DNA of 64,000 bases, from positions 166,280-230,279 of the forward strand of contig JAPPHY010000007.1 in NCBI GenBank assembly GCA_028877205.1. The letters are read 5' to 3'. The notes beneath the pieces are model-generated. The model was not told where the DNA came from. It saw nothing but the letters and a program-made list of their open reading frames with translations, and did no database searches. The stretch's first letter is position 1, and the number at the start of each line of letters is the position of its first letter. The DNA is from Chloroflexota bacterium (GTDB taxonomy: Bacteria; Chloroflexota; Dehalococcoidia; Lucifugimonadales; UBA2985). The position numbers and the translations under genes were made by a program. Shown one piece after another: positions 3,887 to 48,280 of the stretch.

Positions 3887-3962
3887 GGGGATATAGCTCA
3901 ACTGGGAGAGCGCGGCGTTCGCATCGCCGAGGTTGGGGGTTCGAGCCCCCCTATCTCCACCA
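3887..3962 (+). tRNA. tRNA-Ala (CGC)
   Basis: 76 nt cloverleaf, acceptor GGGGATA/TATCTCC with G3:U70, anticodon arm CGGCG-TTCGCAT-CGCCG, GGTTCGAG T-loop, encoded CCA. Confidence 0.97.
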
Positions 3963-4315
3963 ACCGACCCTAAATTCAGGGGCTAGTGAGTTTCGGGAAT
4001 TAGGGTATCCCATACGGCCTTCCAAGTCTCCTCAAATCATGAAGAACCTGCTGGACGTCCACTGAAGGTGAGAGCAGTCGCGGGGTGTCTAGACGAACAT
4101 CCAACTACAGTACCCTTCACATGCGTTTCGAGGGTAAGGAAGATAAGGTCGCCGGTCGTGAGTTACGAAGTTTTCCTAATGAATAAAGCGCCATTGAGTA
4201 TATGGCTGACCGCTGGCCCAATTCATACTCCAACATGAACCACGCTGGATTTGTTGCTGGTACGCTTATTAGTAGACAAACGGCTAAACTCAACTTTACG
4301 AAGGAAACTCGTGCA

Positions 4316-5194
4316 GTGAATGCGGATCATCACGAAATCACTGAAGTCACGCGGCGTGCCATCCTTGACCATCTAGCTTTGAGTGGCATTCCCTGGGCAG
4401 GCCGCCTAGGAGAGCAAGAATTCCTCGCTAGGCTCTATGACCTCTCATCAATGCCTTCTACAGACAGTCGTTTCAGAGACGCTGACGGTGACATTTGGCA
4501 GCACCGTGTACGCAATCCGAACGATTGGGAAGACGATTGGGTCTTTACCGACCGAAGATTCGACCTACTACACGCTACAGACGACAGATTTCTCCGGTTC
4601 CTCTGTGAAACCATTCATCCCGTCGTGAGGGCCAATGACGAGGAAGTAGGTAACCTTGTATATCATTACAATCAGCATCTGGAGTTCGATGGGTGGCAGA
4701 TAATTGAAGGGGGCAAGATTTCAGGACAGCGATTCTTCGTTCCCCATAAGATGGGACGACGCGTGCAAGTCTTGGACGAACCGGTTGGATGGGAGAAAGT
4801 TCAAGACCTCATAGGCGAAGCCCGCGATCTTCTCCAGGCTGGACTGTATCCGCGGGTGGGTAGTGCCTGCCGCGATGCGCTCATTTATGTGGCGAGAGAG
4901 TTACAAGCAATTGCGCCGGAAACTGCGTTGGGACTGCAAGAAGGAAACGTCCAAGGAATACTAGAGGCCTTCTTGAAAGCAAAACGACCGGGTAAATCGA
5001 ACGAACGCCTTCGGGCTTACGCCAGGACTCCTTGGAACTTCGCTCAACAGGTGCAGCATGACACGGAAGCAGATTATATCTCCGCAGCACTCTGCCTTGA
5101 GGCTGTCGCGTCCACGGCCGCCATTGCATATTTGCTCGCCACTTATGACCAAGGTGGCGATTTCTCCGGCGATATTGATGATTCACCGTTCTGA
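4316..5194 (+). CDS. AbiJ N-terminal domain (NTD3)-containing putative abortive-infection/defence protein
   Basis: ITEVTRRAILD..WAGRLGEQEFLARLYDLSSMPSTDSRF..AxGDIWQHRVRNxxDWEDDWVF..FLRFLCETIHPVVR matches AbiJ_NTD3 by recognition; visibly lower GC than flanks; GTG 4316 after AAGGA (ORF open from 4202). Confidence 0.75.
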   Translation: MNADHHEITEVTRRAILDHLALSGIPWAGRLGEQEFLARLYDLSSMPSTDSRFRDADGDIWQHRVRNPNDWEDDWVFTDRRFDLLHATDDRFLRFLCETIHPVVRANDEEVGNLVYHYNQHLEFDGWQIIEGGKISGQRFFVPHKMGRRVQVLDEPVGWEKVQDLIGEARDLLQAGLYPRVGSACRDALIYVARELQAIAPETALGLQEGNVQGILEAFLKAKRPGKSNERLRAYARTPWNFAQQVQHDTEADYISAALCLEAVASTAAIAYLLATYDQGGDFSGDIDDSPF

Positions 5195-5448
5195 GAGCTC
5201 TTGCTAGTCGTCAAAACCCCTATTCGGTCTGCCAACCGCTCCAGCTCACTTTGATGAACCTGTTTCCCTAGGTATAGGCCAATTCGCGAGGCGCTACGAA
5301 ACTCCTACAAGGCATTACGGACATCACCGCCAAAGCAGGAACACACGCCGCGCCACCGCAAAGTCAACACGGCCGCCAAGTTGCACTGCAATACTCAGAA
5401 CGACTTGACCCACCAGGACTGGCCCGCGTTTTCGAGTAGAAGCGATGG

Positions 5449-6801: not shown

Positions 6802-6837
6802 ACCGCTGTGGCTCAATCAAATCGAGCCGGAGAAAGC

Positions 6838-7377
6838 ATGGACAACTGGCACTCACTCGGCACGGCCGGGGAGCACATCGAGGTGGTGGAGTACCGCGCC
6901 GACTGGCCCCTCGTCTTTGAGCGGGAGGCGGCGGCTATCCTGGCGGCGTGCCGGCCCTGGATCACCGAGGGGCACCACATTGGCAGCACGTCCGTGCCGG
7001 GACTCGCGGCCAAGCCCATCCTGGACGTCCTGCCGGTTGCCGCAGGCCCTGCGAAGGCTGACGAAGCCGTCTCCCGGATGGCGGCGCTGGGCTACCGGTA
7101 CCGCGGCGAGAACGGCATCGTCGGCCGCTTCTACTTCGACAGGGTCGTCGACGGCCGCACGGTCATGCACGTCCACATGTTTCCGGCGGGCCATCCCGAA
7201 GTCCATCGACACCTGGTATTCCGCGACCACCTCAGGGCGAACCCGGACGCCGCACGCGAGTACGAGAGGCTCAAGAGGGAGCTCGCAGCGCGATACAGGG
7301 ACGACCGCCGGGCCTACACTGACGCGAAGGCCGCCTTCATCACAAGCGTCATCGACGCCGCGATGCGCGACGCCTGA
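6838..7377 (+). CDS. GrpB family protein (nucleotidyltransferase-like)
   Basis: HIGSTSVPGLAAKPILD, HVH, FRDHLR..EYERLKRELA..YTDAK. Confidence 0.92.
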   Translation: MDNWHSLGTAGEHIEVVEYRADWPLVFEREAAAILAACRPWITEGHHIGSTSVPGLAAKPILDVLPVAAGPAKADEAVSRMAALGYRYRGENGIVGRFYFDRVVDGRTVMHVHMFPAGHPEVHRHLVFRDHLRANPDAAREYERLKRELAARYRDDRRAYTDAKAAFITSVIDAAMRDA

Positions 7378-7429
7378 GTTCTACCCTGGTCTTACCGTCC
7401 CGGCAGAGAATGGTCGCCGAAGCAGGGGC

Positions 7430-8467
7430 CTAGAGGGGCTTGCGCGCCAGGAAGCAGTACAACGGAGTGAAGATTCCGCTCTTGCCGCCCGCCACGTAGG
7501 CCCTTGCGGTATGGTCCATCAGCCCGATGACGTCCGCGGACCCCTTGGGCAACACTCTCAGCGCCTCCGCCATCCTGGATGTCCCCAAGAGCACCTTGCG
7601 GCCCAGCGGGGTCCTGCGCAGGGCGTTTCCCAACGTATTCCCCCGGGCCTCCATCGGCTGATACCACGGCGTGATCCGACCGTTTTCGTCGACAGCCCGG
7701 TCCGTCGCCTCTATGACTTGGAACCCCGCCGTTTCCAGTGCCCGGTTCACCTCGCCCATAGTCGCTATGTCCCTGAGCGCGATGCCGTGCATCAGGTCCC
7801 TCTTCGTGGCTTGGTGCCGCACGTCGCCGGGATCGAACTCTTCCGTCATGCACATTTCCTGGCCCCAAAAGAGGGCTCCGGGCTTCAGCACTCGATATAT
7901 CTCGGCGAACGCGCCCACCTTGTCCGGTGCATGGCACGTTGATTCGATGGCGTAGCCACAGTCGAAGGTATCGTCCGCAATGGCGTCCATGTCCATAAAG
8001 CTGCACGCGAGGTAGTCGACCATGTGGTCCAGCCCTGCCTCAGCGCTCAACGTCTTCGCCTTATCGAGCTGGAGCTCATTCCTGTTGACTCCTACGACCC
8101 TGACGCCGGCCTCGCGGACGACACGGCGCATCGGTCCGCCGACCCCGCAACCAACGTCGATCACAGTCATACCCTCGCTGAGCTCCAGTTTGGAGATCAT
8201 CAGCCGCTGATGCCGGATCTTCGACTCCTCCAGGCTCTCCTCAGGAGATAGCGGCGCGAAGTGCAGGGACTCGCCCCAACCGTACACCATGAACTCGCTG
8301 CAAAGGTCATAGTACTCGTTGACGGTTTCGGTATGGTCGTAGCCCACCGCGCCTCCGTCCTCCGGGTACGCTCTGTCGACCCATCCGTGGAAGCGCTCAA
8401 CCCGACGGGAAACGTCCGACTCGCGGTATGCGGCCCGTAACCCCTTGTATAGCTCCAGAAGTTGCAT
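7430..8467 (-). CDS. Sterol 24-C-methyltransferase-like protein (ERG6/SMT family)
   Basis: YYDLCSEFMVYGWGESLHFA, IDVGCGVGGPMR, YAIESTCHAP, IYRVLKPG, C-terminal VAGGKSGIFTPLYCFLARKP; TATAAT -10 on minus strand at 8550-8545. Confidence 0.88.
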   Translation of the reverse strand: MQLLELYKGLRAAYRESDVSRRVERFHGWVDRAYPEDGGAVGYDHTETVNEYYDLCSEFMVYGWGESLHFAPLSPEESLEESKIRHQRLMISKLELSEGMTVIDVGCGVGGPMRRVVREAGVRVVGVNRNELQLDKAKTLSAEAGLDHMVDYLACSFMDMDAIADDTFDCGYAIESTCHAPDKVGAFAEIYRVLKPGALFWGQEMCMTEEFDPGDVRHQATKRDLMHGIALRDIATMGEVNRALETAGFQVIEATDRAVDENGRITPWYQPMEARGNTLGNALRRTPLGRKVLLGTSRMAEALRVLPKGSADVIGLMDHTARAYVAGGKSGIFTPLYCFLARKPL

Positions 8468-8655
8468 TTGCACCTTTCGAATCAGCCTGGGCAAAGGATA
8501 GTTCGGCTGAAGCGCTGACTCAGCGCCGGATAGCCTCCCGGCCCATTATACTACGACGCCGTTGACCCGCCGCGCTTTCTTCTAATTCGGAACCGCGTAC
8601 GCCTGGTTGAGACCTGGCGGAGTCACCACGACCTCAGCGGCGTTCCACGGTTCGT

Positions 8656-8685
8656 TTGACACCGGGGCGGCCATTCAGATAGGCT
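8656..8685 (+). promoter_or_regulatory. Candidate sigma70 promoter upstream of the small ORF
   Basis: TTGACA-N18-TAGGCT; its spacer is one arm of a 14-bp perfect inverted repeat. Confidence 0.45.
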
Positions 8686-8759
8686 TCGAATCCGAGGGCG
8701 ATGCCTGACGGAATGGCCGCCCCGTTGGGGAATCGGCGGCCCGGGAATCTCTTTCGGCT

Positions 8760-8927
8760 ATGCGTACGCTAACCGCACTTCTGATACTCGCCGGAGCAGC
8801 GATAGTGGTGCTTCGCTTCTTGAACGCGTACAGGATCACCGCGAAGTTCGAGATGCGCAGGCGTGACCAGGACGCCGATGACGGCATGGAGATGACCGCG
8901 CTGTTCGAGATGAACCGACGCGGCTGA
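8760..8927 (+). CDS. Small (55 aa) single-pass membrane peptide, not in ORF track
   Basis: MRTLTALLILAGAAIVVLRFLNAYRITAKFEMRRRDQDADDGMEMTALFEMNRRG; hydrophobic N-terminus, mostly G/C third positions, fills the gap between two minus-strand genes. Confidence 0.6.
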   Translation: MRTLTALLILAGAAIVVLRFLNAYRITAKFEMRRRDQDADDGMEMTALFEMNRRG

Positions 8928-8943
8928 GTGCGCGCCTCTCCGC

Positions 8944-9573
8944 CTACCCCGCGCTTGTGTAGAACGCGGCCGTTCGCGCCGCAGCAGCTCTTGCGGCTTC
9001 CGGGTCGTCTCCGGCGTCGATCGATGCCTGCGCCCAGCCGTCGCTGCTGCCCACGACGAGCGCGCGTCCTTCCGGCGACGCGGCGAACTCCTCTTCGTCA
9101 ATCTTCGGGGCGTCCGGCTGCGCCAGATGTAGCGAAAGCCCCAGCAGCCCCATCTCCCAGCCCACGCCTGCGGCGCCCGGTCCGAACTCGTCCCAGTGCG
9201 GCGAAAGCAGCGCCTCGTGCGATAGCGTGAACCTAGCGCGACCGGCCCCTTCCCTCACAAAGCGGACCTCCACCCAGCTGACGTCGCCGGCGAACTCCCA
9301 CGTCACACCGAGGCGGGAGCGCCTCAGGCACGTGACGATCGTCCCGCCTGCGTTGCCCTCCAGCTGAAAGCGGCCTCCGGGTTGCAGGTCGCCGCTCACG
9401 GGCATGAACCAGCGCGGGAGGCGGTTCGCACTGGTGATGGCGTCCCACAGGTTGTCCACGCGCGCCGGGAAGCTCCGCGCCAGCGTCACAACACTAGTGG
9501 GCCGGCCGTCGCGCTCCGTATAGCTCACAGCACGCGTTACAGAGCTCAGCTGATCGTCCACGTTCAGGTTCAA
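8944..9573 (-). CDS. SRPBCC/Aha1 domain protein
   Basis: LWDAITSANRLPRWFMPVSGDLQPGGRFQLEGNAGG..FGPGAAGVGW. Confidence 0.88.
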   Translation of the reverse strand: MNLNVDDQLSSVTRAVSYTERDGRPTSVVTLARSFPARVDNLWDAITSANRLPRWFMPVSGDLQPGGRFQLEGNAGGTIVTCLRRSRLGVTWEFAGDVSWVEVRFVREGAGRARFTLSHEALLSPHWDEFGPGAAGVGWEMGLLGLSLHLAQPDAPKIDEEEFAASPEGRALVVGSSDGWAQASIDAGDDPEAARAAAARTAAFYTSAG

Positions 9574-9582
9574 GGCTCCTCC

Positions 9583-10530
9583 TCAGCTAACGTCTGTCAG
9601 CGTCGTTCCAGCGAAGTCGCCGTAGCCCCGCATGAACTCGGCCGCCTCCATGACGCGACGACCCTCCGGCTGCACCCTCACGAGGCCCAGCACGCCGTCG
9701 CCTGTCGCCACACCAACGGGGGCAGGCCCGTCGGACGGCAGCCTCAGTACCGAACCAGGCGCGGAGGTGACCAACTCCGGAATCGGTACCGCCTCCACGA
9801 CCTTCAGCAGGCCCCCGCGCCATCGCGTGTACGAGCCAGGCCAGGGCGTGAATGCGCGCACCTGCCGCCACAGCTCGGCCGCGGACAGCTCCCAGCGGAT
9901 AGCGCCGTCCTCCTTGGTGAGCTTGCGGGCGTAGGTGGCGCGGCTGCCGTCCTGCGGCACGGGCGTGACCTCGCCGCGGCCGTAGGCGGGCAGGACGCGC
10001 GCCAGCAGGTCTGCTCCGCGGCTGAACAGCTCGTCCGTGAGCGCTCCCGTCGTGTCTTCAGGCATCGACGGCCTCTCCTCCTGTGCAAGGACAGGCCCTG
10101 AGTCCGTACCGCGGTCCAGCAGCATGAGCGATACGCCGCCAATTTCGTCGCCCTCCAGGATGGTGAAGGCGACGGGCGACGGCCCGCGATGCCTCGGCAG
10201 CAGCGATGGATGTAAGTTGACGCAACCCAGGGGCGGCGCTTCAACCACGGCGCGCGGCAGGATCAGCCCGTAGGCCGCAATGACGACCACCTCCGGCTCC
10301 AGCGCAATGATCTCGGCCTGCGCGATCGCGTCACGAAGGGTTGCGGGCTGCAGGACTCGCAGCCCTTGGGACTCCGCGTACACCTTGACCGGCGGCGGCA
10401 TCAGTCCACGGCCGCGGCCGGCGGGCCGGTCGGGCTGCGTCACGACGCCAACCACGCTGTGGCCTCCCTCCAGCAGCGCGGTCAGCGGGGTCACCGCGTA
10501 GGCAGGCGTACCCATGTATATCACTCGCAC
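9583..10530 (-). CDS. fmt: Methionyl-tRNA formyltransferase
   Basis: MRVIYMGTP, VVTQPDRPAGRG, NLHPSLLPRHRGPSP; GTG start at 10530. Confidence 0.95.
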   Translation of the reverse strand: MRVIYMGTPAYAVTPLTALLEGGHSVVGVVTQPDRPAGRGRGLMPPPVKVYAESQGLRVLQPATLRDAIAQAEIIALEPEVVVIAAYGLILPRAVVEAPPLGCVNLHPSLLPRHRGPSPVAFTILEGDEIGGVSLMLLDRGTDSGPVLAQEERPSMPEDTTGALTDELFSRGADLLARVLPAYGRGEVTPVPQDGSRATYARKLTKEDGAIRWELSAAELWRQVRAFTPWPGSYTRWRGGLLKVVEAVPIPELVTSAPGSVLRLPSDGPAPVGVATGDGVLGLVRVQPEGRRVMEAAEFMRGYGDFAGTTLTDVS

Positions 10531-10821
10531 TTCTGCTCCTTCGCGGCCGATTATAGTAGGACAAGGAGACCCAAACAACGGCCCCCCAAAGTCTCCGAAA
10601 ATTCCCGTCACAACCCTCTTGCACCCCCCAAACAACCCTCCTGTTATATTCTGTTTGGCCGATGTACTCGCTCCTCTGACACCCATTTTCGGCCTCATCG
10701 CGTACTTCACGCCGCCCGGCCTCCGGGCGCCTCTCCAGCGCCTCCCGGCGCTATCGATCCACGGTACGTCCGACTAGCACCGCGTCTACGCGCGGCCACC
10801 TTGAGGAGAGGCGACAGAGCG

Positions 10822-12207
10822 TTGAACCACCCGAGTCCCCGCACCGTTTGGGAGGCCGCCCTGGGGAGGCTGGAGCTGCAGGTCAGCAGACCCAGTTTCG
10901 CCACCTGGCTCCGGGACACCTCGGCCGTCTCCTTTGACGACGGTCGGATGGTGGTTGCAACGCCGTCGCTGTTCGCGGCACGGTGGCTCGAGCAGAGGAT
11001 GTCATCCCTGGTGGAGGCCACTCTCACCCAGATCGCAGGGCGTCCATCCACCGTGCGATTCCAGGTTGCAGGGACGCCTGCGTCCGCCGAACCCAGGTCT
11101 GTTGCCACACCCACTTCCAGTGGTGACTGTGATGACTGGCCCGCCGATCCACCGGCATCCTCGGGTCGCGGATTCGCGCTCAACCCGCGCTATACGCTTG
11201 GCTCCTTCGTAGTGGGCGCGTCCAACCAGCTCGCGTACGCCGCGGCGGTCGCAGTCTCCACCCGCCCGGGCGCCGCGTACAACCCGCTTTTCCTGTACGG
11301 GGGAGTTGGCCTCGGAAAGACGCACCTGCTGCACGGCATCGGCAATGCCTCTGCCAGCAGGGGCCTTTCGTGCCTCTACGTCAGCTCCGAGCAGTTCACC
11401 AACGACTTCATCACCTCCCTGCAGACGAAGCGGACGCGCGAGTTCCGAGAGAAGTACCGATCCGTTGACGTGCTCCTCATGGACGACATCCAGTTCCTCC
11501 GCGGGAAGGAGACCGTTCAGGAGAGCTTCTTCCACACCTTCAACGACCTGCACAACTCAAATCGCCAGATAGTCCTGGCGTGCGACAGGCCAACGTCCGC
11601 GCTTTCCCCGATCGAGGATCGCATCCGCTCCCGGCTCCAGTGGGGCTTGAGCGCGGACATACAGTTGCCGGCACAGGAGACCCGAAGAGCCATCCTTGAG
11701 CTCAAGGCGAGAGAGATCGGCGTGGACGTACCAACCGACGTGCTCAACCTTCTTACGGACCGCTTTGCCGGGAGCGTTCGCGACATGGAGGGTGCACTGA
11801 ACCGGGTTGCTGCTTACGCTGACCTTACGGGAACCGCCATCGACCTCGCGCTCGCGCATAGTGCCCTCGGCGAACTGCTGGCCTTACCGCCAGCACCCAC
11901 ACCCTCGCCCCAGGCCATCCTCAGCACCGTCTGTGGCCACTACCAGGTTGACCTTCGTGCAGTCGTGAGCAAGCGGCGAGACCGGAAGGTTACCCTCGCG
12001 CGACAGGTCGCTATCTACCTGCTACGAGAGCAGGCACTGATGCCGCTCAAGAGTATCGGCGCGCTAGTCGGCAACCGAGAGCATCCTTCAGTGAGGCAGG
12101 CATGGGCCAAGATAGGCAGGGAGCGCGATGTGGATCCCTCTTTGGACGCGGAACTCCGTTCGCTGTCCGAGTCCCTGTTCGCGCCGCGGGAAGCTACTCC
12201 CTCCTAA
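10822..12207 (+). CDS. dnaA: Chromosomal replication initiator DnaA
   Basis: FATW domain I, YNPLFLYGGVGLGKTHL, DVLLMDDIQF, QESFFHTFN, RSRLQWGL, VRDMEGAL; TTG start at 10822. Confidence 0.95.
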   Translation: MNHPSPRTVWEAALGRLELQVSRPSFATWLRDTSAVSFDDGRMVVATPSLFAARWLEQRMSSLVEATLTQIAGRPSTVRFQVAGTPASAEPRSVATPTSSGDCDDWPADPPASSGRGFALNPRYTLGSFVVGASNQLAYAAAVAVSTRPGAAYNPLFLYGGVGLGKTHLLHGIGNASASRGLSCLYVSSEQFTNDFITSLQTKRTREFREKYRSVDVLLMDDIQFLRGKETVQESFFHTFNDLHNSNRQIVLACDRPTSALSPIEDRIRSRLQWGLSADIQLPAQETRRAILELKAREIGVDVPTDVLNLLTDRFAGSVRDMEGALNRVAAYADLTGTAIDLALAHSALGELLALPPAPTPSPQAILSTVCGHYQVDLRAVVSKRRDRKVTLARQVAIYLLREQALMPLKSIGALVGNREHPSVRQAWAKIGRERDVDPSLDAELRSLSESLFAPREATPS

Positions 12208-45108: not shown

Positions 45109-45197
45109 GGGGTAGCGGGGAGCTACACCGCGTAACGTGAGATTCCTGCGTGCGGTGGGCCGATTCATGTGATTTCACTGTCAGGGAGGCTAGTGGT

Positions 45198-47462
45198 ATG
45201 CTGACCTCCATTCTGCTGAGCGAGGCGCGCAGGCGCATTAGTTGGGGAGTGCACCTTGGAGCTCTGTGCCTAATGACTGCTACGTTGTCGGTGGCATGTG
45301 AAGGTGGGTCGCAGGTAACAAGTTCAACTCAGGTGAGCCAAAATCCGGAACCAACCTTCACACCGACAGCGTCTCCCGTTTCCATACCGACCAGTTCACC
45401 CAGTCCGATACCAACGCCAACTCCTACTACACCACCCACCAGTACGCCTACACCCGTTCCTACCCCAACACCCACCAGCGCGCCCACGGCCACTCCTACT
45501 CCAACACCCACCAGCGCACCCACGTCGACATCCACGCCTACTCCTGTGCCTGCGCCTACCAGCACACCCACTCCGGTGCCAACGGCAACTCCAAATCCCC
45601 GGGATGTGGCTGCCTCCCAATTGGCTGAGATCATTCCATGGTTCGAGGATCCCGAGGGAGCTGCTTCGGCCGACGCGGCTAGAATTCTTGTTGATCTCTT
45701 CCTAGACTATCCTGACGTTGGCAATACAGTCGCCAAGTTGCCTTGGGTTGTAGACGGAGCGTCTCAAGTAGAAGTGGACCTTTTGTGGAGTCTTCAGAGA
45801 ATCGCCGACGTGGATTCCGACCTGGCCGGGAGGATAATAGCCCTTCCCTGGCTAGCTAGCGACGTAACCAGTGACGGTCTGAGCGACCTCCAATCCTTCG
45901 ACAGAGTAGCTTCGCAGGACATTGAGTCAGCTAGGCAAATCGCTGCTATTCCCTGGTTCATGGATGGCCTGGACAGATACGAACAGAGCGCAATCAACCA
46001 TATCGGCAGCTTCATCGGATCGGCGGACGAACTCGACCGACGCCTAGCTCAGCAGGTCGTCAACGCAGGGTGGTTCACTGACGGCGTAACCTGGCGCAAG
46101 GCGTGGACGATAGGAGTCTTGGCCTCTGTTTCCAGAACGTATCGAGAGGTGCTACCTGCTATCGTCGAGTTTGATTGGGCATTCGACGACGACCTGACTT
46201 GGCACGAATTCAATGTGGTTACCAACATCAGGGACTTGGAGTTGTTCAATCCCGGCTCTGGAGTCATGCTTGTACAGTTCCAGTGGCTGTATGACGGCAT
46301 CACAGACAGCGAGGGTGGGGCGCTCTCCGTCATAAGGCACTTGGCGGAGTTCAACCCGGAGTTTAGCGTATGGCTAATCGAATCGCCCTGGGTGGCGGAC
46401 GGGATAACCTCCTATTCTGAAGTCCAGTTGATGCGTGGCTTGGGCAATATCTTCGCTGTGGCCGGTACCCTAGACCGCGATCCCTTTAAACTCTTGAGCC
46501 TTCTAGTGGATGAGGCTGACGGACCGTATAGTCCCATTGAGGGTATGCTGATGCGGAGCTTGGGACAGGGCTTGGAGGATGAGGAAACGAGACGCAAGCT
46601 CCTTGAAGAGATGATGGCCGCGGACTGGTTCGTCGACGGCCTGACGGATATCGAGAGGGTCCACATTATCGGCCTGAGTAGCGAAAACGCCTACTATCAG
46701 GAATGGCCGAATCTAAACTCGGAAAAGGTACATTCTAGGACGATTGACCTCCCGCTTGCAGGTGAGGTTAATCTCTGGCTGATGGAGGGCAGCACGGTGT
46801 CTTGGGAGAGCGCAATGTATTGGTTTGAAGAGGCCGTGAGGGGAGCGGAGCAGCTCATGGAGGAGCCGTTCCCCTTCAGCGAACTGGTCGTTGCGACGGT
46901 GGGGAGATACGACTATGACGGCAGGGCTCGCACTGTTGTCGGGCAGTCTTACGACGGAGGTCAACGCATCGAGATAGTCGACAATCTATCCGACAAAGGC
47001 ATGCGAGACGTCTTGCATCACGAAGTAGCCCATTCCTATTTCAATAGCCTGATGGGCCCCAAATGGTTCGCAGAGGCGGGGGCTGAGTACGTCCGCGAGT
47101 ATATACAGAAGTGGAAGGGTTACGCTGACCAGGACGCACACATTCGCGTGATGAATCTGGTCAGGGATGATTGCACGTCCAAGGGGGTCTTGCAGATTGT
47201 GGAGGCCCTCGTCGACAGCCCGGGAATACCGCCCTTCTGCAAGTTCAAGATTGGCCTACACCTGCTGCTCAGCCTGGAGAGGGAGATTGGGTTCGAGGCC
47301 GTAGTGGCGGCACTGGGAGATCTGCACCGCACGGGCCTGGCCAGCCAGGTTCCCAATAGCGATAGGGACATATATGAGGCCTTTCTTAGGCATACACCAA
47401 CAGGCAAAGAGAACAAGATGCAGGAAATCTGGGACAGGCTGTACGGCTCCTCCGACTGGTAG
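45198..47462 (+). CDS. Lipoprotein with Pro/Thr linker, W-x-x-D repeats and a C-terminal HExxH metallopeptidase-like domain
   Basis: LSVAC lipobox, about 80-residue PT tract, repeated PWxxDG units, HHEVAHSYF..WFAEAGAEY; lower GC than the nuo operon. Confidence 0.75.
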   Translation: MLTSILLSEARRRISWGVHLGALCLMTATLSVACEGGSQVTSSTQVSQNPEPTFTPTASPVSIPTSSPSPIPTPTPTTPPTSTPTPVPTPTPTSAPTATPTPTPTSAPTSTSTPTPVPAPTSTPTPVPTATPNPRDVAASQLAEIIPWFEDPEGAASADAARILVDLFLDYPDVGNTVAKLPWVVDGASQVEVDLLWSLQRIADVDSDLAGRIIALPWLASDVTSDGLSDLQSFDRVASQDIESARQIAAIPWFMDGLDRYEQSAINHIGSFIGSADELDRRLAQQVVNAGWFTDGVTWRKAWTIGVLASVSRTYREVLPAIVEFDWAFDDDLTWHEFNVVTNIRDLELFNPGSGVMLVQFQWLYDGITDSEGGALSVIRHLAEFNPEFSVWLIESPWVADGITSYSEVQLMRGLGNIFAVAGTLDRDPFKLLSLLVDEADGPYSPIEGMLMRSLGQGLEDEETRRKLLEEMMAADWFVDGLTDIERVHIIGLSSENAYYQEWPNLNSEKVHSRTIDLPLAGEVNLWLMEGSTVSWESAMYWFEEAVRGAEQLMEEPFPFSELVVATVGRYDYDGRARTVVGQSYDGGQRIEIVDNLSDKGMRDVLHHEVAHSYFNSLMGPKWFAEAGAEYVREYIQKWKGYADQDAHIRVMNLVRDDCTSKGVLQIVEALVDSPGIPPFCKFKIGLHLLLSLEREIGFEAVVAALGDLHRTGLASQVPNSDRDIYEAFLRHTPTGKENKMQEIWDRLYGSSDW

Positions 47463-47766
47463 TGTGAGCCTACTCACTCTCTCATAATAGGTGGTACAGG
47501 TTGAGTTGAGTGAGATATGACCGGAGTACCGATGCGGAGCATAATAGAGACAAAGAAGACAAGTGGAGTGGAGTGCAGCGTCGTTCCGCAGCTCCCAGAC
47601 AATCCTGCCCGGTGCTGAGTGGGGCTCCAAACAAGCGGCTGGTGCCCACTGAATGCCTGCACTGTTTGTCATGAGGTCGCCGTGATAGGATGCAACCGCC
47701 CAGCCCTGCCAGGCTGGCGATCATAGGACGGGGCGCCCATCGCAAGGCGAGTGTGAAGGGAGAGCC

Positions 47767-47991
47767 GTGAACGTAGAAGATAGTGTGACTCTAACGCTCC
47801 GGTACACAAGGGAGGAGGGTAAGTGGGTAGGCGTATGTGTCGAGTTGGGGACGAGCACATTCGGTAGGAACTTCGAGAGAGTCGCGGCGGACTTGGAAGC
47901 ATTGGTGGAAGAACACCTGAATCTCCTGGAAGAAGCTGGCGAGCGTGAGCGCTTTTTCTCAGAGAACGGGATTGAAATGATTCCCGCCTAG
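47767..47991 (+). CDS. HicB-like antitoxin (N-terminal domain only)
   Basis: EEGKWVGVCVELGTSTFGRNFE..LEALVEEHL pattern of HicB N-terminal domains. Confidence 0.6.
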   Translation: MNVEDSVTLTLRYTREEGKWVGVCVELGTSTFGRNFERVAADLEALVEEHLNLLEEAGERERFFSENGIEMIPA

Positions 47992-48002
47992 CCGAATCTT
48001 GA

Positions 48003-48125
48003 ACGGCGGTGAAGGATACGCGCGAGAATATCCCTCAGACGACACTCAGCCAAATCCTCGGCCCAAAGCAGACCGGACTCGGACGCGATGGCTTGGAGCG
48101 CTTGGAGAAACAGCACAACAAGTAG
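48003..48125 (+). pseudogene. C-terminal remnant of a HicA-like toxin
   Basis: Frame reads TAVKDTRENIPQTTLSQILGPKQTGLGRDGLERL..*, resembling the HicA IPxGTLxxIL(K)QxGL end; in-frame stop at 48000. Confidence 0.4.
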
Positions 48126-48188
48126 TTGCGACCTTGCGCCCCCTTGTACCACCGCCTCCGTTTTGATATGATGCATTGTCAATAGGCA

Positions 48189-48280
48189 GGAGGGATCGCA
48201 TAGAGGCCTAGTGCGGCCGCCTGCTAAGCGGTTAGGGGGCGAAAGCTCTCTCATGGGTTCGAATCCCATTCCCTCCGCCA
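48189..48280 (+). tRNA. tRNA-Ser (GCT)
   Basis: 92 nt, acceptor GGAGGGA/TCCCTCC, anticodon arm GCCGC-CTGCTAA-GCGGT, long variable arm, GGTTCGAATCC, G73, CCA. Confidence 0.96.

Follow-up and report, generated by a model that had tools for sequence, protein, structure and literature searches.

A sterol methyltransferase-family gene in a Chloroflexota cell without sterol synthesis, a candidate tailoring enzyme for exogenous sterols

What is an enzyme of the sterol methyltransferase (SMT) family doing in a bacterium that has no means of making sterols? This question is raised by a gene in a 64,000-nucleotide stretch of DNA, referred to here as the window, from a Chloroflexota bacterium (assembly GCA_028877205.1, contig JAPPHY010000007.1, positions 166,280 to 230,279 of the forward strand). 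An earlier reading of these letters, made without database searches (the sequence-only reading), had described the gene as an orphan, eukaryote-type sterol 24-C-methyltransferase. The gene is called type A below, and a second SMT-family gene elsewhere in the same genome is called type B. Our view is that type A encodes an enzyme that tailors sterols from outside the cell, probably those of a sponge, and that the cell can do without; for this view we see the chances as evenly divided.

7430..8467, minus strand: coding sequence of the type A SMT-family methyltransferase, 345 amino acids from the ATG at 8467 (from the open reading frame, Pfam, homologue length and dN/dS, the ratio of non-synonymous to synonymous substitution rates)

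The type A gene, its family and its active site

The open frame spans 7430..8494 on the minus strand and would encode 354 amino acids if read from an upstream TTG at 8494. The 345-residue form that begins at the ATG is the database entry for the window (P0001) and has the length of most homologues. The translation holds YYD...YGWGESLHFA, DVGCGVGGP, YAIESTCHAP and VAGGKSGIFTPLYCFLARKP, which bears out the frame and every SMT motif quoted in the sequence-only reading. The protein matched the Pfam families Methyltransf_11 (62.8 bits) and Sterol_MT_C, the latter proposed earlier as a check (60.0 bits against a gathering cut-off of 21.7; profile positions 4-65 of 66). None of 14 control genomes contained a Sterol_MT_C match. 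Values of dN/dS were 0.13-0.18 against nine homologues of other lineages and 0.23-0.28 against the copies of congeners. The gene is intact and under purifying selection.

A profile-free search of 1.84 billion representatives returned 257 clusters at E <= 1e-30. Named anchors among these clusters include a rice SMT1-like protein, fungal Erg6, algal and protist SMTs and, from bacteria, proteins of Acidimicrobiia (Candidatus Poriferisocius among them) and Candidatus Dadabacteria. The type A protein is 41% identical, over residues 4-345, to the rice cycloartenol C-24-methyltransferase-1-like protein. A quick IQ-TREE analysis of 45 rows was midpoint-rooted with no outgroup and gives a split, not a rooted clade. 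In this tree one branch, with a support of 96 in the Shimodaira-Hasegawa-like approximate likelihood ratio test (SH-aLRT), leaves 9/9 named eukaryotic SMTs on one side. Among the 30 rows opposite are the window protein with its orthologues, type B and the bacterial proteins that have names. Support for the type A clade itself is 100% (SH-aLRT), and its internal stem, 0.74 changes per site, is the longest. With the Sterol_MT_C match, this placement among named SMTs agrees with the family identity first proposed and puts type A, judged by sequence, on the bacterial side of the SMT (Erg6) tree. The description as eukaryote-type does not hold, given the branch that splits off all nine eukaryotic proteins and a Region I that is non-canonical. 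Among solved structures there was no close SMT; the best match was MitM (78 bits), and an entry titled 24-sterol C-methyltransferase scored 28 bits.

The active site was read against a preprint of the Welander group, 10.64898/2025.12.19.695621, which lists 25 residues conserved in all SMTs functional in vitro and names H90, D125, G129, P133 and E195 as essential in yeast Erg6. Residues were numbered via Cladosporium Erg6, which shows 25/25 of the conserved residues at a constant offset of 8. Type A keeps 22/25, departing from the rule at T78S, F89L and L341M, and all five essential residues are present in the window protein. The Region II pattern D-x-G-x-G-x-x-G-P (D125, G127, G129, G132, P133) is found in the window protein and in 117/117 orthologues. 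Region I of the window protein keeps G84, W85, G86, H90 and F91 but departs from the canonical signature Y81-E-Y-G-W-G-x-x-F89-H-F, position 81 being M in type A and Y or F in canonical SMTs. A further departure is I249. Position 341 is less constrained, with M in 48/117 orthologues and L in 69/117. In the models of the preprint, residue 81 lies <=5 Angstrom from the docked sterol in 8/8 cases and residue 249 in all but one. Because both of these residues are altered, the acceptor pocket of type A is remodelled around a catalytic core that is intact.

Type A resembles eukaryotic Erg6/SMT1 in Regions II-IV, the C-terminal domain, H90 and E195. It differs from them in Region I, which reads M-V-Y-G-W-G-E-S-L-H-F in place of the Y-E-Y-G-W-G-Q-S-F-H-F of Cladosporium Erg6, and in its host genome, which is without a sterol synthesis pathway. 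With the bacterial SMTs of PMC10070321 and 10.64898/2025.12.19.695621 it shares the combination of Methyltransf_11 and Sterol_MT_C and the bacterial side of the tree. It also shares with them an occurrence in sponge-microbiome assemblies, often without an oxidosqualene cyclase (OSC) in the same metagenome-assembled genome (MAG).

Squalene and sterol-type genes in the genome, the genus and the class

The window's genome (G000) is 96.3% complete. On contig C5, 3' of a polyprenyl synthase gene, it carries hpnC, hpnD and hpnE (332, 291 and 408 bits, all above NCBIfam cut-offs). Neither cyclase domain (PF13243, SQHop_cyclase_C; PF13249, SQHop_cyclase_N) nor squalene epoxidase (SE, PF08491) had a match in the genome, and no C-4/C-5 enzyme of the FA_hydroxylase type was found in it. 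The cell makes squalene and, because it lacks epoxidase and cyclase, can neither cyclise it nor make sterols. Pfam searches confirmed that the window has no squalene epoxidase or cyclase, as stated before, and found no other sterol gene in it. The description of the gene as an orphan is upheld by the negative genome-wide search for both enzymes and by the missing cyclase in all nine genomes of the genus. The remark that no sterol pathway stands beside it is correct for the window, but it missed several relevant genes elsewhere in the genome: type B, an ERG4/ERG24 homologue, hpnCDE and a partner cluster.

The single ERG4_ERG24 protein has 429 amino acids and scores 130 bits, and this family matched 0/14 control genomes. 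The only P450 of the genome is a GPP34 fusion. Type B lies on contig C2 (L001:1495-2520, minus strand, equivalent to L006:10040-11065) and encodes 341 amino acids with a Sterol_MT_C match of 85.9 bits; it is 44% identical to type A. It has 25/25 conserved residues and G249, a glycine found in 114/116 orthologues, and fits the canonical pattern of bacterial SMTs in 10.64898/2025.12.19.695621, where G249 is linked to a capacity for side-chain propylation. Its relatives occur in at least 212 species genomes and include MAGs of Acidimicrobiia (Candidatus Poriferisocius), Latescibacterota and Gemmatimonadota at 61-70% identity, which suggests exchange between phyla. The neighbourhood of type B is unconserved, the largest non-self cluster being present in 17/80 loci and ERG4/24 close by in 2/80. 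About 5 kb from type B on the same contig (L006:1004-5026, plus strand) is a eukaryote-like protein of 1340 amino acids that consists almost entirely of leucine-rich repeats.

The surroundings of type A were compared at the best 80 homologous loci, 74 of which have full flanks. Typically an MMPL/RND transporter with a sterol-sensing domain comes first, followed by the SMT and by a GPP34-P450 fusion in convergent orientation; a Rieske/KshA_C oxygenase is encoded close by. Of the 80 loci, 63 have the transporter, 67 the GPP34-P450 and 58 the Rieske protein; all three accompany the gene in 49 of the 74 full-flank loci and none in 11. A flavin amine-oxidase-family gene occurs with the cluster in 37/80. 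The nearest solved relatives are KshA for the Rieske protein (92 bits), CYP51 for the P450 (69 bits) and HpnN/MmpL4/Patched for the transporter (about 49 bits). As a lead only, proteins in the Atlas that look like the Rieske protein bear the automatic name cholesterol 7-desaturase. These partners differ from the erg/sdmAB clusters described for bacterial SMTs in PMC10070321 and 10.64898/2025.12.19.695621. In the window's genome the transporter, P450 and Rieske genes are on contig C1, where the transporter and P450 genes abut with no SMT between them. Type A is here out of its ancestral cluster and stands alone. On contig C4 a DDE transposase (DDE_Tnp_1_4, 410.8 bits; L088:10664-11995, plus strand) lies between the cluster-associated amine-oxidase gene and ERG4/24.

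Nine related genomes of the genus, two of them single contigs, were compared gene by gene.

hpnC and hpnD: intact in 9/9 genomes
Cyclase PF13243: 0/9 genomes, the closed ones included
Type A SMT: intact in G000, G280, G279 and G278; not found intact in the other five
GPP34-P450 (frames of 668-698 amino acids): intact in G000, G280, G279 and G278; remnant in G281, G283 and G284 (Pfam) and in G242 (tblastn); none in G282
Type B SMT: intact in G000 and G280; remnant in G281; not found intact in the other six
ERG4/24: intact in G000 and G280; remnant in G242 and G281; none in G278, G279, G282, G283 and G284

Intact type A and intact P450 occur together in 4/9 genomes and are both decayed or absent in 5/9. 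For type B and ERG4/24 these figures are 2/9 and 7/9. Type A and its ancestral neighbour, the P450, thus form one pair; type B and ERG4/24 form the other, in the classical order of Erg6 followed by Erg4. In the closed genome G242 about 52 bp replace type B between XdhC and aldolase II; what remains of the P450 is residues 1-109 and 623-687, and of ERG4/24 residues 275-429, while the Rieske and transporter genes are intact at 87% identity. The type B gene of G281 occupies the same locus and lacks about 730 bp of its interior, and G284 retains a Sterol_MT_C remnant in a 69-residue frame that is not assignable to type A or B. Because remnants persist, these genes have been lost, not gained, in the sister genomes. 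The series from intact through remnant to absent provides natural knock-outs for comparison.

Close relatives of type A are present in at least 465 species genomes, nearly all of them Dehalococcoidia/SAR202, and across these genomes the clade is conserved at an identity of 74-82%. Among the best 80 loci, 78 are titled Dehalococcoidia, Dehalococcoidales, Chloroflexota, Chloroflexi or SAR202, which fits the earlier assignment of the DNA to Chloroflexota. Of 201 genomes sampled evenly across the class, 28 had Sterol_MT_C and 22, G000 included, had type A, called at >=65% identity. Half of these 22 have a strong cyclase match (E < 1e-50) and half do not (11 each). A strong squalene epoxidase match, fused to cyclase, was found in two of them (G022 and G060). 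Strong epoxidase matches were found in four genomes class-wide (G022, G060, G121 and G148). Because so few type A genomes have the epoxidase-cyclase, the orphan setting is the rule for type A.

G022 shows the other setting. On its contig C4 (L241:2697-10958) a sterol cluster combines a 3beta-hydroxysteroid dehydrogenase-like protein, a Rieske/VanA_C protein, ERG4/24 (245 bits), a P450 (190 bits) and SE-OSC, a fusion of squalene epoxidase and oxidosqualene cyclase of 1263 amino acids. From this gene content, the class includes sterol makers. G022 also has type A and a type B-like SMT, and thus shares type A, type B-like, ERG4/24, P450 and Rieske genes with the window's genome; in contrast, that genome and its genus have the tailoring genes only, the SE-OSC core being missing.

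Candidate acceptors

If the enzyme follows the chemistry of its family, it would transfer the methyl cation of S-adenosylmethionine to a double bond in the side chain of a sterol-like lipid (chemistry of the C-24 type), with His90 taking off a proton and Glu195 helping to hold the acceptor. The acceptor would be a sterol from outside the cell, because the cell has neither epoxidase nor cyclase. A sponge host would be its likely source, because the runs that contain the DNA are labelled sponge metagenome. Type A would act with the GPP34-P450 fusion and type B with the ERG4/ERG24-type reductase. Together with the KshA-like Rieske protein and the RND transporters with a sterol-sensing domain, they would form a dispensable sterol-tailoring toolkit that is eroding in sister genomes.

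The sponge setting is based on several observations. Three DNA runs of one study, all labelled sponge metagenome, contain 92-95% of the sampled words of the stretch and may be its source. In these runs (X1-X3) summed contig depth was 403-1206 at a conserved SMT block (7834-7927) and 9-13 on the flanks; as a rough indication, this seems to reflect many related SMT copies from other organisms of the community. A metagenome pattern search returned 60 type A loci from about ten assemblies, a figure that covers close relatives only and is no habitat census. Contigs whose names begin with LXNI01 and JGIcombinedJ30088, assigned in 10.64898/2025.12.19.695621 to metagenomes of Sarcotragus foetidus and Aplysina aerophoba, carry type A homologues.

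Orphan sterol-modifying enzymes have precedents in host-dependent bacteria and likewise in sterol-auxotrophic animals. The proposal that type A acts on host or scavenged sterols, already made in the sequence-only reading, stays the best one available, although it could equally well turn out wrong. We favour it because of the company of the gene (a canonical SMT, ERG4/24, a KshA-like Rieske protein and a sterol-sensing-domain transporter), because sterol-making relatives share the accessory genes, because of the sponge setting and because hpnCDE stays in genomes that have dropped the toolkit. A further reason is that bacterial SMTs are often active in vitro and often found without OSC: in PMC10070321, 20/24 metagenomic bacterial SMTs methylated desmosterol, and OSC was in the same cluster or MAG for only 13/24, leaving 11/24 without.

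Several points weigh against this proposal. The altered pocket positions are fixed or nearly so in the clade, with M81 and L89 in 117/117 orthologues, I249 in 117/117 and S, G or N at position 78 in 112/117. In 10.64898/2025.12.19.695621, 7/11 SMTs inactive on desmosterol or 24-methylenecholesterol deviate at one of the 25 positions. The likeness of the P450, Rieske protein and transporter to sterol enzymes is remote, and NCBIfam cut-offs are unreached by these three as well as by the ERG4/24 and amine-oxidase proteins. A sterol uptake system in this cell would have to be assumed. The genus sample is small (n=9), and the missing type B and ERG4/24 genes of G278 (91% complete, 90 contigs) could be assembly gaps. 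Lastly, a squalene/presqualene-synthase match is present in 22/22 type A genomes and SE-OSC in only 2/22, because of which an endogenous squalene-derived acceptor fits the phyletic pattern at least as well.

This last point leads to an alternative that is possible but doubtful, in which type A is a triterpene methyltransferase that acts on squalene made by the cell, or on an acyclic or hopanoid lipid derived from it, with the P450 and Rieske proteins oxidising the methylated product and the HpnN-like RND protein exporting it. It draws on the hpnC, hpnD and hpnE genes beside the polyprenyl synthase and on the lack of any cyclase or epoxidase found that would use up squalene. Type A is also nested wholly in squalene-synthesising genomes: the HpnC model was matched at E <= 0.001 in 22/22 type A genomes against 81/201 sample-wide, and above its cut-off in 15/22 against 60/201. 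Of the 11 type A genomes without a strong cyclase match, 10 have HpnC above cut-off. The best named NCBIfam relatives of the transporter, below cut-off, are HAE3 and HpnN. The variant Region I recalls the TMT-1, TMT-2 and TMT-3 enzymes of Botryococcus braunii, which PMC3533583 describes as SMT-like proteins whose sterol-binding domains are variant and whose substrates for methylation are linear squalene or botryococcene. Type A is like them in its Region I, in a supply of squalene and in the absence of a cyclase, a resemblance by description only, and unlike them it is bacterial and not algal.

Against methylation of squalene, hpnC and hpnD are intact throughout the genus, including five genomes without intact type A. 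Where type A has been lost they are kept, and therefore squalene synthesis is independent of the methyltransferase. The two genes lie <=6 kb from type A in just 1/80 loci. In the families that carry type A, hpnCDE is lineage-wide, and the nesting may reflect phylogeny. Other members of the toolkit, ERG4/24 and the canonical type B, belong to sterol families. A more specific version, in which type A is no sterol enzyme and works with the GPP34-P450, KshA-like Rieske and HpnN-like RND proteins to turn HpnCDE squalene into methylated, oxygenated acyclic triterpenoids for the envelope of cyclase-less Dehalococcoidia, is in our estimate unlikely.

A quite unlikely alternative is that type A is a leftover gene on its way out, or acts on a non-isoprenoid olefin such as an unsaturated fatty acyl chain, and has no sterol or triterpenoid role. 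Five of the nine genus genomes are without an intact copy, dN/dS against congeners is somewhat higher, the Pfam family CMAS also matches the protein (58.6 bits) and no NCBIfam equivalog cut-off is reached. However, the gene has an intact frame, retains its catalytic residues and has a dN/dS clearly below 1. The clade also retains its identity and its conserved gene neighbourhood across the species genomes counted above, and Sterol_MT_C is specific in the control genomes.

De novo sterol synthesis through an unrecognised cyclase or epoxidase, with type A as an ordinary biosynthetic SMT, is very improbable. It could appeal to squalene synthesis, an ERG4/24 homologue, a P450 and two SMTs in the genome, to the amine-oxidase-family gene that often accompanies the cluster and to SE-OSC in some relatives in the class. 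Opposed to it are the absence of matches to both cyclase domains and SE in the genome, of SQHop_cyclase_C in the whole genus and of any FA_hydroxylase-type enzyme found, as well as the remoteness of the sole P450 from CYP51.

Steranes with alkylated side chains, 24-isopropylcholestane among them, are taken as fossil traces of eukaryotes and early sponges. Should host sterols be what type A tailors, Chloroflexota symbionts would be direct candidates for an influence on the sterol profiles of sponges. On such sterols the remodelled pocket (M81, L89, I249) may direct methylation to a non-canonical position and, if so, help to produce the unconventional sponge-sterol side chains that serve as biomarkers. 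We know of no methylsqualenes from bacteria. Squalene methylation, if true, would mean a new bacterial lipid class. If these cells make methylated, oxygenated acyclic triterpenoids, the methylsqualene pathway of Botryococcus would have its first counterpart in bacteria, and sedimentary methylated triterpane hydrocarbons would have a new source. The substrate, regiochemistry and physiological role set out here are predictions from family and company.

Bacterial SMTs, sponge-symbiont SMTs and SE-OSC fusions are already in print, and symbiont SMTs can make side chains of the 24-isopropylcholestane kind (Brown, Olagunju, Giner & Welander 2023, PMC10070321). Chloroflexota has no mention in the main texts of PMC10070321 and 10.64898/2025.12.19.695621. 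A paper on triterpenoid cyclases and one on Melophlus make just passing mention of Chloroflexi or SAR202 and sterols. In the main texts of the literature the type A clade, its fixed pocket changes and its partner cluster were not found described, nor were its prevalence in cyclase-less Dehalococcoidia and the decay series within the genus. What this locus adds is a very widespread Dehalococcoidia/SAR202 SMT clade with a systematically altered sterol-binding region and close relatives in sponge-metagenome assemblies, fixed partners for that clade (P450, Rieske oxygenase and sterol-sensing-domain transporter) and evidence that its usual setting is a cell unable to make sterols.

The insertion site of type A and its neighbours in the window

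The remaining features of the locus are as follows.

6808..7377, plus strand: GrpB-family gene, left flank, outside the system (Pfam GrpB, 170.6 bits; 0/80 loci; flank conserved in the closed congener G242)
7378..8634, no strand: single-gene segment holding the SMT and its upstream region, with about 88 bp instead in G242 between GrpB and SRPBCC
8471..8476, minus strand: putative Shine-Dalgarno-like AAGGTG, 3 nt before the ATG, read from the letters
8545..8550, minus strand: TATAAT hexamer inside the inserted segment, 79 nt upstream of the ATG; it may be a -10 box, with no -35 that could be recognised
8944..9573, minus strand: AHSA1/SRPBCC-family gene, right flank, not a partner (Pfam AHSA1, 35.9 bits; 0/80 loci; adjoins GrpB in G242)

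The segment was defined by a DNA synteny search and junction alignment, and contigs from three runs span both of its junctions. No repeats flank it. When reads were mapped to the locus, no joint skipped the SMT gene; contigs break within the gene. The idea that the SRPBCC protein and a 55-residue membrane peptide are accessory factors of the methyltransferase is scarcely credible: adjacency on the chromosome and the known ability of SRPBCC-fold proteins to bind lipids speak for it, but each of the two stands beside the homologue in 0/80 loci, G242 has GrpB and SRPBCC side by side with no SMT segment, the gene is at another site in G278 and G279, and the peptide has no Pfam match. Genes for HbpS, AbiJ, Fmt, DnaA and Obg are likewise next to the homologue in 0/80 loci, and DUF402 in 1/80. 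Otherwise the window carries housekeeping genes (complex I, purine synthesis, tRNA synthetases, ribosomal genes, and the MEP-pathway genes for Dxr and IspG).

The site of type A differs among congeners. In G278 and G279 its flanks correspond to positions only 24 bp apart in the window's genome (C7:101395/101419), and in G280 it occupies a third chromosomal site. It follows from these different sites that type A is a single-gene unit that either moves or is regained. Identity to the window copy is 71-73% for the copies of congeners and up to 82% for those of other lineages. Horizontal replacement was considered as the reason for this pattern, but the approximately unbiased test does not reject a clade of window and congeners (p 0.742), and a tree constrained to that clade exceeded the result of the quick free search by 29.5 log-likelihood units. 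What is established is that the chromosomal sites differ; transfer and relocation are both candidate explanations.

The sequence-only reading had also given the gene its own TATAAT promoter. The perfect hexamer is there, but a scan of 7200-9000 gave no sigma-70-type site, no -35 partner and no terminator-like site. TATAAT occurs five times in the window against 2.2 expected, a number reached in 4/100 shuffles. The hexamer is therefore weak evidence of a promoter. No RNA run is among the sequencing runs listed as containing the stretch.

Between the SMT segment and the SRPBCC gene, the spacer at 8660-8727 contains an imperfect 29-nt inverted repeat whose flanks are conserved in G242. The hairpin predicted over 8640-8760 has a folding energy of -53.1 kcal/mol (z -2.84; equalled in 0/200 shuffles) and no Rfam match at gathering score. 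Further on, the 613-residue frame at 10366-12207 resembles DnaA by eye (Walker-type GGVGLGKTHLL), and cumulative GC skew has its minimum at 10-12 kb of the window. The SMT would therefore be about 2-3 kb from a probable replication origin. Up to the probable dnaA, the window's genome and G242 differ by many insertions and deletions. At 3887-5446 an AbiJ_NTD3 protein (4202-5194) is encoded after a tRNA gene (3887-3959); the region has a G+C of 0.55 against about 0.64, measures about 1480 bp here and about 590 bp in G242, and has the look of a small tRNA-associated defence island. The region 45150-48277, with a 770-residue frame that has no Pfam match, a G+C of 0.56 at 46-48 kb and a position just before a second tRNA gene (48189-48277), may be another island.

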